A stretch of DNA of 17,335 bases from a virus: UHGV virus genome UHGV-1687067. One strand, 5' to 3'. This document shows positions 9,553 through 15,800 of the stretch, in pieces (the stretch's first letter is position 1; every line of letters begins with the position of its first letter). The position numbers and the translations under genes were made by a program. The notes beneath the pieces are model-generated. The model was not told the origin of the DNA. It made no database searches and was given only the letters and a program-made list of their open reading frames with translations.

Positions 9553-9753
9553 ATGTTCGACAAAATACGGGAGGCGTGCGCGTATGTGACTGGGGCCGTA
9601 ACTGCTTTTTTCGGCGCGATAACCATCAATGACATTGCCGTCTTTGTGGGTATCTTATCAACCGTAGGCACATTTGCCGTTAACTATTACTTCAAATCAC
9701 AGGAGAACAAGCGAGCGCAAGAGGAACACGACGCGCGAATGGGGAATAAGTAA
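9553..9753 (+). CDS. Class II holin (pinholin, S21-like)
   Basis: 66 aa with two hydrophobic segments (AYVTGAVTAFFGAI; IAVFVGILSTVGTFAVNYYF) and charged C-terminus; immediately precedes a SAR endolysin; resembles phage 21 S (NLYFK vs NYYFK). Confidence 0.7.
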   Translation: MFDKIREACAYVTGAVTAFFGAITINDIAVFVGILSTVGTFAVNYYFKSQENKRAQEEHDARMGNK

Positions 9754-10245
9754 ATGATTAGCCAATCGCTGAAAAACAAGATTATTGCTGCGGCGGCTGG
9801 CGGGGCGATCGCTATTGCGGCTGTGATGGTTAAACCATTAGAAGGCGTGGAGTACGATCCGTATCGTGATGCTATCGGTGTATGGACTGTATGTTATGGT
9901 CACACCGGAAAAGACATTATGCTGGGTAAAACTTACACGCAATCAGAATGCGATGCTTTGTTAAACAAAGATCTCCACAAAACCGCAAAAGCGATTGACC
10001 CATATATTAAAGTCGAAATATCAGATTTTACCCGCGCGGCGCTTTATTCATTCGCCTATAACGTAGGCGCTACCAACTTCAAAACATCAACATTATTGAA
10101 GCTACTCAATGACGGCAAGAAATCGGAGGCGTGCGCACAGCTTAAACGCTGGATATATGCTGGTGGTAAGCAGTGGCAAGGGTTAATTAACCGCCGTGAT
10201 GTTGAATATGCCGTTTGCGAATGGGGTGAAACATGGACAAGGTGA
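9754..10245 (+). CDS. SAR endolysin (T4 lysozyme-like muramidase, P21 R-like)
   Basis: N-terminal Gly/Ala-rich signal-anchor-release segment ([17 protein letters not shown]) followed by [33 protein letters not shown], matching phage 21 R along its length, with the E-D-T catalytic spacing. Confidence 0.9.
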
Positions 10246-10703
10246 AGACGTTAATCATCGCCGTTGTTGTTTGCATTATTGCCGGGCTTACCGCCGTAAC
10301 GTGTTATTACCAGGGTGAGGCGGCAAGGTTACAGGAAGAAGTCACGGTGACGAAAGGCGCACTAAAAACAGCAAGTAACACTATCCAGCAGATGAAGGAG
10401 CGAAACGCCGAACTGTCAAAACTTGATAAGAGGTATCACGATGAGATTAAAGCTATCAGATCTGACATTGCCGATCTTCGCGCTGGCATTGATAGCGGTG
10501 CTATCAGGTTGCACGTCAACGCCGAGCCAGTGTACGTGCACGACGCCACCGGAACCGCCAGCAGCATTAATGGAGCCACCTGTAGACTTACTGCCAGTGC
10601 TCAATCAAATTATCTATCCCTCAGAGAACAACTAAAAGAGAAAGACGCGAAGATCACCGGATTACAGGACTACATCAAAACGCAGTGCATACGCAAAGAA
10701 TAA
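10233..10703 (+). CDS. Rz-like i-spanin
   Basis: N-terminal TM helix ([16 protein letters not shown]), coiled-coil-like middle, and RLHV...YLSLREQL...QCIRKE matching lambda Rz (RRLHIKA...YFTLRERL...EQCR). Overlaps endolysin 3' end. Confidence 0.75.
10441..10635 (+). CDS. Rz1-like o-spanin lipoprotein, embedded in +1 frame of Rz
   Basis: ATG 10441 with AGAGG about 8 nt upstream. [24 protein letters not shown] has lipobox LSGC; short Pro-rich mature region ([19 protein letters not shown]). Embedded architecture is classic. Confidence 0.7.
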   Translation: MRLKLSDLTLPIFALALIAVLSGCTSTPSQCTCTTPPEPPAALMEPPVDLLPVLNQIIYPSENN

Positions 10704-10858: not shown

Positions 10859-10872
10859 AATTTTATAAAATT
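10859..10872. promoter_or_regulatory. Perfect 14-bp AT palindrome AATTTTATAAAATT in the 279-bp gap after Rz
   Basis: Self-complementary 14-mer in the long non-coding gap between Rz and the next gene; could be a promoter -10 region or protein-binding site. Confidence 0.2.
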
Positions 10873-10982
10873 CTGGAAACGGTACTGATGAAGCGCCGTT
10901 TTCAGTGTTTTATAACTGTTTTCACTCCCTGCGGTGTCGAGTTTTGCGGGGGTTATATTTTTCAGAATAGGAGATTATTCTG

Positions 10983-11525
10983 ATGGCTAAGGCTAAAGGC
11001 ATTAAATTGCCTCAATTTAAGATCCCACTCTTTGAGCATACAACCGTTTTCTTTTGCCCGACCCGCGAGATGTTCTATGAATTTTGCGAAAAGGCAGGAA
11101 TTCCGATTGAACCTGATTTCGAGTTGGCTGGAGGATTAACGCTTACTTGCACTGGCGAGAATGGTGGTAACTTCTACGTGATCGCAGTATTCAACAATGA
11201 GTTGGGAACGCTGGTCCATGAATGCGCCCACACTACATTCCACGTTTTAAGTGATGTAGGCGTCGTGGCTACCACGGATCCTACCCATCCGGCGAATGAG
11301 ACTTACGCTTACATGGTAGGCCGTATCTTCGATGCGTTTTTCCCTATCCTAGCAGAATCAAACGAAGCACAGGTTGCAGCAATGCAGGCGGCAGAAGTCG
11401 TCGATCAGGCGCTGGAACAGGCAGAACAGCCGAAGGAAGAAGAAAAGCCAGCGAAGAAAGGTAAACGTAAGCCGAAAGCAAAAGAAGCGCTTGTACCGCG
11501 TGTTATGAGTTTTAAACGAGGCTGA
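10983..11525 (+). CDS. Hypothetical protein with HExxH motif (possible zinc metallopeptidase-like) and Lys/Glu-rich C-terminal tail
   Basis: ATG 10983 with AGGAG 9 nt upstream. Motif LVHECAHTTFH (HExxHxxxH) in the middle; C-terminus low-complexity (EQPKEEEKPAKKGKRKPKAKE). Family not recognised. Confidence 0.5.
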   Translation: MAKAKGIKLPQFKIPLFEHTTVFFCPTREMFYEFCEKAGIPIEPDFELAGGLTLTCTGENGGNFYVIAVFNNELGTLVHECAHTTFHVLSDVGVVATTDPTHPANETYAYMVGRIFDAFFPILAESNEAQVAAMQAAEVVDQALEQAEQPKEEEKPAKKGKRKPKAKEALVPRVMSFKRG

Positions 11526-11527
11526 TT

Positions 11528-11617
11528 ATGATTGCGTCAATACTAACTTTCGTCGGCGGGATGGCGGCTGGATTCATCCTTTGCCTGTTTCTGGTAGTTA
11601 TGTCTATGCGAGACTGA
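11528..11617 (+). CDS. Micro-ORF 1: hydrophobic peptide, 29 aa (MIASILTFVGGMAAGFILCLFLVVMSMRD)
   Basis: ATG 2 nt after upstream stop, GAGG upstream; single predicted TM helix. Missed by ORF track (under 60 aa). Confidence 0.35.
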   Translation: MIASILTFVGGMAAGFILCLFLVVMSMRD

Positions 11618-11619
11618 TT

Positions 11620-11682
11620 ATGGACGCTTATTTATTTATCGGAATGGCGGCGGCTGTAATATTGTTTTTGTTGTGGAAGTAA
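11620..11682 (+). CDS. Micro-ORF 2: hydrophobic peptide, 20 aa (MDAYLFIGMAAAVILFLLWK)
   Basis: ATG 11620; N-terminus MDAY shared with micro-ORF 3; the same DNA context TGATTATGGACGCTTA precedes both. Confidence 0.35.
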   Translation: MDAYLFIGMAAAVILFLLWK

Positions 11683-11687
11683 TGATT

Positions 11688-11792
11688 ATGGACGCTTACA
11701 TCATTGCCGGATTAATCGGCGTTTCTGTGTTTCTTGCTGGTTCTATTATAGTTGCGCTGATAAACGTATATATCAAGTATTTGGTGGGGTGA
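11688..11792 (+). CDS. Micro-ORF 3: hydrophobic peptide, 34 aa (MDAYIIAGLIGVSVFLAGSIIVALINVYIKYLVG)
   Basis: ATG 11688 (in-frame ATG 11682 overlaps upstream TAA); paralog of micro-ORF 2. Confidence 0.35.
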   Translation: MDAYIIAGLIGVSVFLAGSIIVALINVYIKYLVG

Positions 11793-11797
11793 AAAAT

Positions 11798-11872
11798 ATG
11801 ATTGACCCGCTAATTATCCTTTCTGCCTGCGTCGCTGTATGGCTGGCGATCATGATATTCATTGAAAGCTGA
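11798..11872 (+). CDS. Micro-ORF 4: hydrophobic peptide, 24 aa (MIDPLIILSACVAVWLAIMIFIES)
   Basis: ATG 11798 with GGTGGGG upstream. Confidence 0.35.
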   Translation: MIDPLIILSACVAVWLAIMIFIES

Positions 11873-11883
11873 AGGTATCCACA

Positions 11884-11964
11884 ATGAACGCATACGAAAT
11901 GCTATTGCTGGTGGCTGTTATTACAGTTATTGCCGTAGATGTTTATCGGGAGTTTAAAAAATGA
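11884..11964 (+). CDS. Micro-ORF 5: hydrophobic peptide, 26 aa (MNAYEMLLLVAVITVIAVDVYREFKK)
   Basis: ATG 11884 with AAGG upstream; stop overlaps next start. Confidence 0.35.
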   Translation: MNAYEMLLLVAVITVIAVDVYREFKK

Positions 11965-12029
11965 AATGGCTTGATTTCTTTTTCCTGATCGTTGCGATTG
12001 TTCTCACTATGACCGCGCTTGCTCAATAG
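11961..12029 (+). CDS. Micro-ORF 6: hydrophobic peptide, 22 aa (MKWLDFFFLIVAIVLTMTALAQ)
   Basis: ATG 11961 overlapping upstream TGA; GGGAG upstream. Confidence 0.35.
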   Translation: MKWLDFFFLIVAIVLTMTALAQ

Positions 12030-12037
12030 GTGAAAGC

Positions 12038-12112
12038 ATGAACGCTATTGATATTATGTTGATCGTGTGTACCGTTGCATTAGTTATTATTGGGGTGATT
12101 ATCAATGTCTGA
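12038..12112 (+). CDS. Micro-ORF 7: hydrophobic peptide, 24 aa (MNAIDIMLIVCTVALVIIGVIINV)
   Basis: ATG 12038 with AGGTGA upstream. Confidence 0.35.
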   Translation: MNAIDIMLIVCTVALVIIGVIINV

Positions 12113-12173
12113 TGGTGATTTCTTAATCATGGCTATATGCACGCTGTTAACTGTTATTGTTTTCTTCGCGTAA
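12105..12173 (+). CDS. Micro-ORF 8: hydrophobic peptide, 22 aa (MSDGDFLIMAICTLLTVIVFFA)
   Basis: ATG 12105 overlapping micro-ORF 7 by 8 nt, GGGGTGA upstream; alternative start ATG 12129. Confidence 0.3.
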   Translation: MSDGDFLIMAICTLLTVIVFFA

Positions 12174-12182
12174 AGGTAAACA

Positions 12183-12266
12183 ATGAAAGAATTATTCGAT
12201 TGGTTGGAAGTATTAACATACTGTGCAAGTTTTGTTGCTTGCGTATATATCATCAATAAATATTGA
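12183..12266 (+). CDS. Micro-ORF 9: hydrophobic peptide, 27 aa (MKELFDWLEVLTYCASFVACVYIINKY)
   Basis: ATG 12183 with AAGG upstream; ends 10 nt before the terS start. Confidence 0.35.
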   Translation: MKELFDWLEVLTYCASFVACVYIINKY

Positions 12267-12276
12267 GAGGTGAATT

Positions 12277-12792
12277 ATGGCCCGCACTAAAAAGGCAAAA
12301 GCTGACGACAAAAAGCCAGCCGCAAAAAGGGTGGGCCGTCCGCATGGTTATACCGAAGAAAAGGCGTTAGAAATCTGTGAACTGGTGGCGGACGGTCAGA
12401 GCGTTAACAAAATTTCGAAGATGCCTGGTATGCCTACCCGTTCAACAATCCTGAAATGGTTTAGAGACGTGCCGGAATTCTCGGACATGTACATGCGCGC
12501 GAAGGAAATCGGCTTCGAGGTATTAGCTGATGAGATCCTCGATATAGCTGATGATGCTAAGAACGTTGATAAAGACCAACTACGCCGCCACCAATTAATG
12601 ATTGAAACGCGTAAATGGTTATTGGCTAAGCTACAACCGCGCAAATACGGCGAACGCGTCACACAGGAGATCGTCGGTAACAAGGAAGAAGCACCCGTCC
12701 AGGTAGAAGTAAATCAGACTACTGTCCTTGAGATAATCGATAACCTGAATAAGGAGTACAATACTCATGGAGACTGCGACGACAAAGATTGA
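12277..12792 (+). CDS. Terminase small subunit (putative)
   Basis: ATG 12277 with GAGGTGA upstream. Basic N-terminus (MARTKKAKADDKKPAAKRVGRPHGY), HTH-like segment (GQSVNKISKMPGMPTRSTILKWF), and position directly upstream of and overlapping the large terminase. Confidence 0.65.
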   Translation: MARTKKAKADDKKPAAKRVGRPHGYTEEKALEICELVADGQSVNKISKMPGMPTRSTILKWFRDVPEFSDMYMRAKEIGFEVLADEILDIADDAKNVDKDQLRRHQLMIETRKWLLAKLQPRKYGERVTQEIVGNKEEAPVQVEVNQTTVLEIIDNLNKEYNTHGDCDDKD

Positions 12793-14299: not shown

Positions 14300-14429
14300 C
14301 TTCGAAAAATTTCCGAAGATGAACAAGAATAATTCTCAATTGGCTACATAAAATCTGCCTCACAATCCCCCGCAAGTTTTTATATTTTTCGCGTAGCAAC
14401 GCGTAAACATGTATTCAGGAGTAAACATT

Positions 14430-15800
14430 ATGCCATCCAATTTAGAATTGGCGGTTAATGCTGCCTTGTCACAACGCCAGGCGGCCTTTGCCCGCTATGC
14501 AGCCGCTAACCCATTCTCAATGGGTATTGATGCAAAACGTGATGCTGCGTGGAGTGAATACGGATTCAAAGAAGAAATCACCTATGCCGATTTATACAAA
14601 CTGTATCGTCGCGGTGGTATCGCTCACGGTGCTATTGAGAAGATCATTACTACGTGCTGGCGCACCAGGCCAACGCTGATTGAAGGTACGGAAGACGAGA
14701 AAGCGGAAAAGGAAACTTCGTGGGAAAGAGAAATCAAAAAACGATTCGACAATAGATTCTGGCGCGTAATTGCTGAATGCGATCGCCGCCGCCTCATCGG
14801 TCGTTATGCTGGACTGTTAATTCACGTCAGGGATAACAAGCCGTGGGATCAGCCAGTAACAAAAGGCGTAGGCATTGCCAAATTTACCCCCGTATGGGCT
14901 GGTGCTCTTACACCGAAGGACTTCGAAGAAAACCCGGATAAAGAAAACTATGGCCTGCCTACATGGTGGGAATACAAGGAGCGCATTAACAGTAAGACCA
15001 TAGCAAGAAAGATACATCCAGATCGCATATTTATCTTCGGTGATTATTCTGATGATGCCATCGCTTTCCTTGAACCGTCCTATAACGCATTCGTTTCACT
15101 GGAGAAAGTGGAAGGCGGCAGCGGTGAATCATTCCTGAAAAACGCAGCACGTCAACTGGCTATCTCGTTCGATAAAGAAATTGATTTCCGTTCTCTGGCT
15201 GCAACATACGGTTGCGACGTTACAGAGCTACGCGAAAAATTCAATGAAGCGGCAGAGGATATAAATAAAGGTAATGATGTGATGATGGCATTACAGGGAG
15301 CTACCGTTAGCCCGCTGGTTACTGCCGTAGCAGATCCTTCCGCTACCTATGACGTCAACCTGCAAACCGCAGCCGCTGGTATCGATATTCCAACGCGTAT
15401 CCTGGTTGGGAATCAGCAGGGCGAACGCGCATCAACCGAAGACCTCCGCTACTTCAATAACCGCTGCATGACCCGCCGTGAGGAAATAGGAGGTGAGCTT
15501 GAGGAGCTATTCCGCAAGATGGCAGATCTCCGCCTTATCAGTATGCCAGTAGACGTATCTGTACTGTGGGACGACCTTAACGCCATGACAAAAGCAGAGC
15601 TACTCGACGCGGCATACAAAATGGCACAAATCAATCAGGCATGTCTCGCTACTGGTGAGGAAATATTCAGCGGTGACGAGATCCGCGAAGCTGCCGGATA
15701 CGATGGCCCGGCTAGTGAGGTAGAACTGGAAGAGGAAAACGATGATGAATGTGAAGAAGATAATCAGGCGAATACCTCCAGCCGCGATAATGCCATCTAA
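14430..15800 (+). CDS. Portal protein (putative)
   Basis: 456 aa from ATG 14430 (AGGAG 8 nt upstream; track start 14409 rejected); located directly after terL, acidic C-terminal tail (EVELEEENDDECEEDNQ). Assignment rests on synteny and size, not a named motif. Confidence 0.55.
   Translation: MPSNLELAVNAALSQRQAAFARYAAANPFSMGIDAKRDAAWSEYGFKEEITYADLYKLYRRGGIAHGAIEKIITTCWRTRPTLIEGTEDEKAEKETSWEREIKKRFDNRFWRVIAECDRRRLIGRYAGLLIHVRDNKPWDQPVTKGVGIAKFTPVWAGALTPKDFEENPDKENYGLPTWWEYKERINSKTIARKIHPDRIFIFGDYSDDAIAFLEPSYNAFVSLEKVEGGSGESFLKNAARQLAISFDKEIDFRSLAATYGCDVTELREKFNEAAEDINKGNDVMMALQGATVSPLVTAVADPSATYDVNLQTAAAGIDIPTRILVGNQQGERASTEDLRYFNNRCMTRREEIGGELEELFRKMADLRLISMPVDVSVLWDDLNAMTKAELLDAAYKMAQINQACLATGEEIFSGDEIREAAGYDGPASEVELEEENDDECEEDNQANTSSRDNAI

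Follow-up and report, generated by a model that had tools for sequence, protein, structure and literature searches.

Several kinds of very small membrane protein are known from bacteria and their phages. Proteins such as AcrZ, MgtS, MgrB, KdpF, CydX, SgrT and YohP are shorter than 50 amino acids (aa), consist of one hydrophobic helix without an enzymatic domain, and are usually unannotated. Where their mode of action is known, such small regulatory proteins either form helix-helix contacts with a larger protein in the membrane or perturb the membrane itself. For YohP, membrane depolarisation has been reported. Here we analyze a stretch of viral DNA of 17,335 nucleotides (UHGV virus genome UHGV-1687067; the whole stretch is called the window), in which positions 11528-12266 of the + strand hold a tandem array of nine micro-ORFs (open reading frames, ORFs, of 20-34 codons) for hydrophobic peptides. 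In size, in the single hydrophobic helix predicted for most of them, in the lack of an enzymatic domain and in being unannotated, these peptides resemble the AcrZ-type proteins. However, the latter are encoded by single, stress-regulated chromosomal genes, whereas the array consists of nine (in relatives up to 13) collinear genes in a putative phage late operon, and no sequence family is common to the two.

Other described systems are similar in part. The type I toxins (Ibs, Ldr, TisB, ShoB, DinQ, Hok) are like the array peptides in length and hydrophobicity, and ibs and ldr are also tandem; the array differs in having no detected antisense RNA or toxin family, and in its strong Shine-Dalgarno (SD) sites, probable translational coupling and acidic N-terminal flanks. 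P2 LysA/LysB, T4 RI, the accessory transmembrane (TM) proteins of Mu, LysM of single-stranded RNA phage (37 aa) and phiX174 E are likewise small and phage-encoded, and they have one TM helix, as is predicted for most of the array peptides. Accessory lysis proteins of phages are encoded beside or within the lysis genes, and they exert their effect through the membrane or target a membrane enzyme. A phage has one or two fixed genes of this kind, whereas the cassettes of the array vary freely in number and identity and have no family in common with these proteins. Anti-CRISPR and anti-defence loci, the nin region of lambdoid phages and morons share with the array a fixed slot between conserved anchor genes, whose small genes vary among close relatives and are exchanged between unrelated phages. 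Their products, however, are soluble proteins of 50-150 aa, and morons have their own promoter and terminator, whereas the present genes of 20-47 codons encode membrane peptides and lack individual promoters. The left end of phage T1 was considered as an analogue and rejected: small genes are present there, but its annotation shows nothing like a series of hydrophobic 20-30-codon ORFs.

Families of small phage genes have reportedly been catalogued from metagenomes by Fremin et al. in 2022. Conserved unannotated intergenic small ORFs (smORFs) of enterobacteria, under purifying selection and in many cases hydrophobic, are like the genes of the array; dense tandem arrays are not described there (PMC11188072). 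The paper that defined the mEpimmI phage group, to which the window belongs, leaves the array unmentioned and assigns an exclusion function to lipoproteins. We found no description of the array in the literature on this phage group, on small membrane proteins, on enterobacterial microproteins or on phage membrane proteins, of which our coverage was incomplete. Small membrane proteins of phages and bacteria are thus known; a dense, collinear and hypervariable array of 20-47-codon genes from approximately 18 families appears, from the literature that we covered, to be new.

Coding evidence for the micro-ORFs

The nine consecutive + strand ORFs all begin with ATG and have 29, 20, 34, 24, 26, 22, 24, 22 and 27 codons; neighbouring ORFs are 2-11 nt apart or share 4 or 8 nt. 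An earlier note, made from the letters of the window, had listed nine such ORFs, each with an SD-like site. All nine are in place, with anti-SD duplex energies of -3.0 to -6.9 kcal/mol at the SD-like sites, and so are the overlaps and abutments that the note had pointed out: ATGA at 11961-11964, through which micro-genes 5 and 6 overlap, an 8-nt overlap of micro-genes 7 and 8 at 12105-12112, and TAATG at 11680-11684. Together, these nine hydrophobic ORFs account for 95% of the interval. Dinucleotide-preserving shuffling, repeated 2000 times, gave on average 2.4 hydrophobic ORFs of 20 codons or more and at most 7, with a coverage of no more than 81%. The opposite strand of the interval contains no such hydrophobic ORF. 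When both strands of the whole window were scanned for ORFs of 18-60 codons with a grand average of hydropathy (GRAVY) above 1.0 and an SD-like site, only five were found, all of them in the array.

We compared the locus with 51 related loci (seven phage records and 44 IMG/VR contigs), which contain 45 distinct sequences of the interval between p180, the conserved upstream neighbour, and terS, the gene for the terminase small subunit. To avoid ascertainment bias, homologs were located at the nucleotide level first, and the openness of the frame was checked afterwards. Nearly all of the approximately 350 homologous segments in the 45 arrays are intact ORFs. Two start-codon mutations (of which one is common to three arrays) and one frameshift are exceptions, as are a few cases in which the C-terminus is extended or the stop codon is displaced by one to three codons. 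For 17 families taken together, the ratio of nonsynonymous to synonymous substitution rates (dN/dS) is 0.18 in the proposed frame, which has no stops; it is 0.94 and 1.64 in the shifted sense frames, and 0.83, 0.30 and 1.88 in the antisense frames, which have 2-13 stops per 100 codons. Variable sites are distributed over codon positions 1/2/3 as 110/72/223, and the ratio of nonsynonymous to synonymous polymorphism (pN/pS) is 0.08-0.36 for each testable family taken alone. For comparison, the dN/dS values of the flanking genes are 0.08 (terS) and 0.06 (p180). The SD duplex averages -5.5 kcal/mol at 151 distinct cassette starts versus -1.7 kcal/mol at 736 other ATGs (p = 2e-53). Since the frames are kept, dN/dS is low and the SD sites are strong, we conclude from these comparisons that the nine micro-ORFs are genuine protein-coding genes maintained by selection. 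Eight of the nine are supported individually by what generally marks a protein-coding gene, namely open frames in homologs, a synonymous excess and initiation signals. The earlier note had proposed coding genes and had raised beforehand the question whether relatives would break the frames; the outcome was the opposite, with the frames preserved across the 45 distinct arrays.

The genes differ in how much variation they offer. Micro-gene 1 (family A; 11528-11617, + strand; 29 aa, MIAS...; MIASILTFVGGMAAGFILCLFLVVMSMRD) forms with its start a junction with the stop codon of p180 (TGATTATG) and has an SD duplex of -5.9 kcal/mol; all of its homologous segments are intact (8/8), and the dN/dS of family A is 0.19. 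Micro-gene 2, or ORF2 (family A3; 11620-11682, +; 20 aa, MDAY...; MDAYLFIGMAAAVILFLLWK), has the weakest SD site of the nine (-3.0 kcal/mol) and a single nucleotide allele across 6 loci. Micro-gene 3, or ORF3 (family B; 11688-11792, +; 34 aa, MDAY...; MDAYIIAGLIGVSVFLAGSIIVALINVYIKYLVG), has a dN/dS of 0.25 and is entered in the protein collection as "hypothetical protein." Alternative starts exist for it at ATG 11682 and GTG 11673, and the MDAY start is the one used by relatives without cassette A3. Micro-gene 4 (family C; 11798-11872, +; 24 aa, MIDP...; MIDPLIILSACVAVWLAIMIFIES) is intact in 41 of the 45 distinct arrays, with 22 nucleotide alleles, a dN/dS of 0.33 and an SD duplex of -6.8 kcal/mol. 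Micro-gene 5 (family F; 11884-11964, +; 26 aa, MNAY...; MNAYEMLLLVAVITVIAVDVYREFKK; dN/dS 0.28), found in 36 of 45 arrays, encodes a short hydrophobic core followed by a basic C-tail. Micro-gene 6 (family H; 11961-12029, +; 22 aa, MKWL...; MKWLDFFFLIVAIVLTMTALAQ) is present in 41 of 45 arrays with 28 alleles; its dN/dS is 0.13 and its SD duplex -6.9 kcal/mol. Micro-gene 7 (family I/I2; 12038-12112, +; 24 aa, MNAI...; MNAIDIMLIVCTVALVIIGVIINV) has dN/dS values of 0.18 (I) and 0.29 (I2), and micro-gene 8 (family J; 12105-12173, +; 22 aa, MSDG...; MSDGDFLIMAICTLLTVIVFFA) has a dN/dS of 0.31 with 28 homologous segments. Micro-gene 9 (family L; 12183-12266, +; 27 aa, MKEL...; MKELFDWLEVLTYCASFVACVYIINKY) is always the final cassette before terS, and its stop codon lies within the SD region of terS. 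It encodes the least hydrophobic of the nine peptides, and it has the lowest dN/dS among the families (0.08) with 27 alleles and all segments intact (36/36).

In RefSeq the interval between p180 and terS carries no annotation, and the same holds for the mEp021 record. GenBank records based on PHANOTATE (MagusPhagus, L001; mEp010, L002; mEp044, L004; mEp515, L005) call some of the cassettes. The same records also call out-of-frame or 5'-extended ORFs (e.g., L004 1727-1834 and 1877-1975), which disagree with the frame that dN/dS supports. For six of the nine peptides of the window, a collection of 15 billion proteins contains no exact copy. On the + strand, no promoter-like site above chance was found in the array or just upstream of it (the count is below expectation), so the array is most simply placed in the late transcript; between the array and terS no terminator was found.

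A collinear cassette locus

Hydrophobic micro-ORFs fill the interval between p180 and terS in every relative. There are 3-13 of them per phage, drawn from approximately 18 recurring families with gene lengths of 20-47 codons, and the distance from p180 to terS ranges from 322 to 1307 bp. The order of the families is fixed (A/A2/A3-B-D2-C-D-E-F-G-H-I-J-G2-K-L), with zero violations, and the 45 arrays show 37 different combinations of cassettes. C and H each occur in 41 of the arrays, L/L2 occurs in 39 and F in 36; none of the arrays is without cassettes. Cassettes are spaced by -8 to +17 nt, and where one is absent its neighbours are rejoined at the usual spacing (F-H, -4 nt; C-F, 10-11 nt; J-L, 9-10 nt), which points to gain and loss at gene boundaries. 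The overlap between I/I2 and the following J is constant at 8 nt, and only two arrays bearing I/I2 are without a detected J. In three related arrays the start codon of J is lost (ATG to ACG), which suggests that this cassette is individually dispensable. As judged from these comparisons, the mEp021/mEpimmI phage group has at this place, without exception, a cassette locus that is hypervariable in content and strictly collinear, and whose individual cassettes are dispensable and sometimes decaying.

Some of the families are paralogous: D2 and F (z = 12.3), G, G2 and H (z = 5-10; H to G and G2, 5-7), and D and D2 (z = 4). Within the window, a direct repeat (D1; 11615-11643 versus 11683-11711) constitutes the shared 5' context of ORF2 and ORF3 that the earlier note had observed. 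The 6 nt upstream of ORF2 and its first four codons duplicate those of ORF3, and a further repeat, D5, also lies at micro-gene 2. ORF2 is a chimera, in which a B-type start (that of ORF3) is fused in frame to an A2-type body that aligns with codons 8-18 of A2. The suggestion that the array grew partly by duplication is therefore borne out by the repeats and by the paralogy of the families, and recombination has to be added to it, as in the chimeric ORF2.

The cassettes are also found outside the close relatives. A metagenomic phage (L052) with a p180 of only 62% identity has identical copies of peptides C and L. A full-length 29-aa homolog of peptide A occurs in approximately 89 records of rV5-like virulent myophages, at 74-79% identity to the window copy, and these homologs are nearly identical to some mEpimmI alleles. 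In rV5 itself the copy of micro-gene 1 is an unannotated 29-codon gene (MIASILTFMGGVAFGFIVCLFIVIMSMRG; L065 3001-3090, DQ832317.1 96254-96343). The peptide A gene of the rV5-like phages is a lone micro-gene amid small genes without assigned function. Other genes for small TM proteins (ORF129, ORF131) lie near the homolog in rV5, and some of the approximately 89 Vequintavirus-like records were deposited under the name "Campylobacter phage." Peptide K is also encoded in a viral contig of 140 kb that is unrelated; a protein search with family K returned only 27 close clusters, all named "hypothetical." The presence of A in rV5-like phages and of K in the 140-kb contig indicates that cassettes move between unrelated phages. 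No relative of terS was found in a one-genome-per-species collection by single-sequence and alignment scans, and the array as such is therefore known only from E. coli phages.

The phage and the neighbouring genes

As a prophage, the window belongs to the mEp021/"mEpimmI" group of temperate coliphages, and the region is 100% identical in E. coli GN04592, MS 21-1 and other strains. Upstream of the array lie the lysis genes: an HP1-family holin (9553-9753), a lysozyme (9754-10245) and Rz with embedded Rz1 (10233-10703). The N-terminus of the lysozyme is hydrophobic and rich in Gly and Ala, as is typical of signal-anchor-release (SAR) endolysins, and the Rz1-type lipoprotein ORF (…LSGC…; 10441-10635) is in the +1 frame of Rz. 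A terminator-like hairpin with a U-run follows between Rz and p180 (10863-10915, + strand; -24.1 kcal/mol, z = -6.6), and the mEp021 record has a terminator annotated at the equivalent position. Since the hairpin is terminator-like, p180, the array and the packaging genes would need read-through or antitermination. In some phage records small ORFs are annotated between Rz and p180; they are non-hydrophobic and look spurious.

The upstream neighbour p180 (10983-11525, +; 180 aa) contains an HECAH (HExxH) motif and is possibly a small zincin or a PolyVal-type metallopeptidase. Downstream of the array, terS (12277-12792, +) encodes an Sf6-like terminase small subunit (Pfam PF20901, E = 1e-37) and is present in 51 of 51 related loci, where it anchors the array on its 3' side; terL and the portal gene follow. 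The earlier note had placed the array between the lysis and packaging modules. This is correct on the packaging side, where terS is directly downstream, but on the lysis side p180 intervenes after Rz. The ORF at 14409-15800 (L066 5962-7001) is labelled "anti-CBASS protein Acb1 family protein" in RefSeq (GN04592) and matches Pfam Phage_portal_3 (E = 1e-17), and the RefSeq label is probably a misnomer. An Rfam match to the S15 leader extends from the end of micro-gene 9 to the start of terS (12224-12305), where the stop codon of micro-gene 9 and the terS ribosome-binding site overlap; it scores 22 bits versus a gathering score of 39.5 (E = 0.023) and is probably due to chance. A snoRNA-like Rfam match was taken as noise. 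An HNH endonuclease gene lies between a truncated p180 and the array in mEp013 (L006 999-1484), and another between the lysozyme and Rz genes in L052 (2752-3273). These insertions are a further sign that the neighbourhood is an insertion hot spot.

Possible roles of the peptides

We think it probable that the interval is a cassette array of genuine micro-genes for late accessory membrane peptides, most likely used in conflict, i.e., exclusion or counter-defence. The peptides would be made by coupled translation from a late transcript running from the lysis genes, through the terminator-like hairpin, to terS, terL and the portal gene. Each peptide would be a small TM-helix ligand that, late in infection, binds to or disturbs either one specific membrane protein or the bilayer. 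Together the peptides would form an accessory module of fast turnover with individually dispensable members, whose likeliest use would be in phage-phage or phage-host conflict, such as the exclusion of rival phages or the neutralisation of membrane-embedded host defences. We rank conflict first because presence/absence polymorphism among near-identical phages and exchange with virulent phages resemble what is seen in conflict loci. The tuning of lysis comes a close second, because the array is near the cassette of holin and SAR-like endolysin, whose action is sensitive to the proton-motive force.

The composition of the peptides agrees with a membrane location. The window peptides have GRAVY values of 0.8-2.4. 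In 14 of the 18 families the N-terminal flank is net-acidic, with Asp or Glu at positions 2-6; after it come an uncharged core (13-27 residues) and a C-terminal end that is neutral or basic. By the positive-inside rule, this arrangement predicts an N-terminus in the periplasm and a C-terminus in the cytoplasm. The short acidic N-tail is similar to that of the Pf3 coat protein and such YidC-type substrates. Peptide 1 is predicted to form a single TM helix with the small-residue motif GGMAAG, and Gly/Ala small-residue motifs occur in cassettes A, A2, A3 and B. Most of the products would thus be single-pass inner-membrane peptides, although not all need be transmembrane.

Several points weigh against our reading. 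By sums over 15-21 residues on the Hessa biological hydrophobicity scale, 7 of the 9 peptides are strongly negative at -2.3 to -4.8 kcal/mol (-2.7 for peptide 1), while peptides 5 and 9 are marginal at -0.3 each and the TM helix of peptide 9 is uncertain. The single hydrophobic helix per peptide proposed earlier is accordingly predicted for seven of the nine, and hydrophobicity in general is upheld. The coding case itself is read from the DNA sequences alone, and that for micro-gene 2, with its one allele and weak SD, is argued from its context. No functional homolog was found for any cassette in Pfam, NCBIfam, PHROGs or PADLOC. The nine peptides and family K gave only TM-noise matches (E >0.01) and no family in Pfam and NCBIfam, and the nine peptides matched no family in PHROGs or PADLOC. 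A "DUF1043" label for peptide A in one nr source was not reproduced in the Pfam scan and was disregarded. Finally, the late-operon position of the array is unusual for exclusion genes, which as a rule are expressed by the prophage or at an early stage of infection.

A bolder version of the conflict reading, which we hold only tentatively, is that the array is a combinatorial library of minimal TM-helix binders, each for a different inner-membrane target, swapped as cassettes among temperate and virulent coliphages. The targets may be DNA-entry or transport proteins that rival phages use, or membrane-embedded sensors and effectors of defence. In such a case the array would be a natural counterpart of the engineered TM peptides known as "traptamers."

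The alternative that survives best, although we consider it doubtful, is a module for lysis timing. Located in the inner membrane together with the holin and the SAR-like endolysin, the peptides could leak protons and so advance holin triggering and endolysin release, or they could pack against the helices of the holin or the SAR endolysin, delaying lysis as antiholins or promoting endolysin release as releasins. The triggering of holins and SAR endolysins depends on membrane energisation, and P2 LysA/LysB, T4 RI and the accessory membrane proteins of Mu are precedents for extra small membrane proteins that tune lysis. The array is in the same late unit as the holin, lysozyme and Rz/Rz1 genes and downstream of them, the lysozyme N-terminus is Gly/Ala-rich and of SAR type, and cassettes A, A2, A3 and B have the Gly/Ala motifs mentioned above. 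Against this, arrays of 3-13 cassettes in 37 combinations, among phages whose terS genes are 78-100% identical (the comparison being by terS), are unlike an integrated timing device. The peptides also show no significant similarity to the TM segments of the phage's own holin or Rz (z at most 3.1) and no match to a holin or antiholin family in Pfam or PHROGs, and at 20-34 aa they are short compared with holins, which usually have at least 60 aa, one or more TM domains and a charged C-terminal domain. Moreover, no recognisable lysis gene is near the peptide A homolog of the rV5-like phages.

Poisons like the type I toxins are an unlikely explanation. Here the peptides, silent in the lysogen, would depolarise the membrane in post-segregational killing or abortive infection, as with TisB, Ibs, Ldr and Hok. 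Their size of 20-34 aa and their composition do match those of small type I toxins, as the earlier note had remarked, and the tandem multiplicity recalls the ibs/sib and ldr/rdl repeats. The likeness ends there. None of the nine peptides matches a toxin family (Ldr, Ibs, TisB, ShoB, Hok/Gef, DinQ, Zor and others) in Pfam or NCBIfam at E up to 1, and Rfam at the same threshold gives no Sib, Rdl, IstR, Sok, OhsC or similar antitoxin small RNA, although a small RNA of an undescribed kind may exist. Two weak antisense promoter-like sites were found, but the regional count of 4 is not above the 7.1 expected from shuffles; there is no antisense terminator within the array, the single terminator-like site lying in terS. 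Type I toxins are individually repressed behind folded 5' untranslated regions, whereas the array genes have SD sites and are probably translationally coupled in a structural operon, and their acidic N-flanks differ from the cationic features typical of TisB and Hok. Bacteriocin-like peptides, which the earlier note had also suggested, find no support: the peptides have no leader-like extension of the class II type, their hydrophobic core beginning 2-9 residues in, and no bacteriocin transporter or immunity gene is nearby, the neighbours being p180 and terS. Nor was an above-chance promoter or a terminator of its own found for the array, such as a moron has.

It is slightly less probable still that the peptides have no function, and that their translation only guards the late mRNA from Rho termination or decay, or couples terS, with hydrophobicity as a by-product of AT-rich DNA. 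The interval is indeed AT-rich (39% GC versus 46% in the window), 55% of the second codon positions are T, the last cassette ends in a stop codon that overlaps the SD region of terS, and the cassettes are individually dispensable. However, a dN/dS of 0.08-0.36 in every testable family indicates selection on the amino-acid sequence. The identity of peptides C and L beside a p180 of 62% identity, and the retention of peptide A in unrelated virulent phages in a different context, also argue against a mere spacer, as do the arrays of only 3 cassettes, in which the length of translated spacer is not conserved.

A non-coding packaging (pac/cos) region with coincidental ORFs, raised in the earlier note as an alternative, is very improbable in spite of its position immediately upstream of terS, as inverted repeats are absent from the interval, its direct repeats are all short, two-copy and placed at cassette junctions, its length varies from 322 to 1307 bp, and it bears an overwhelming coding signature (dN/dS 0.18). 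In P22/Sf6-type phages the pac site is located within terS itself; that one of the cassettes contains a short pac site is formally possible.

Genes of 20-30 codons are far below the cut-offs of gene callers, and the locus is blank in RefSeq and partly mis-framed in GenBank phage records. The array provides a clean benchmark for smORF prediction. If the proposed role is true, it would also be a tractable system for very small membrane proteins, since each cassette can be deleted or expressed alone; and if each peptide does target a membrane protein, the families would supply approximately 18 natural, minimal and evolutionarily validated TM-helix ligands for E. coli. For the phages themselves, the array means that a fixed genomic slot can be devoted to a dozen or so selection-maintained genes of 20-30 codons. 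Should these genes form a library of binders, they would represent a new class of conflict locus, made only of gene products of 20-47 residues.

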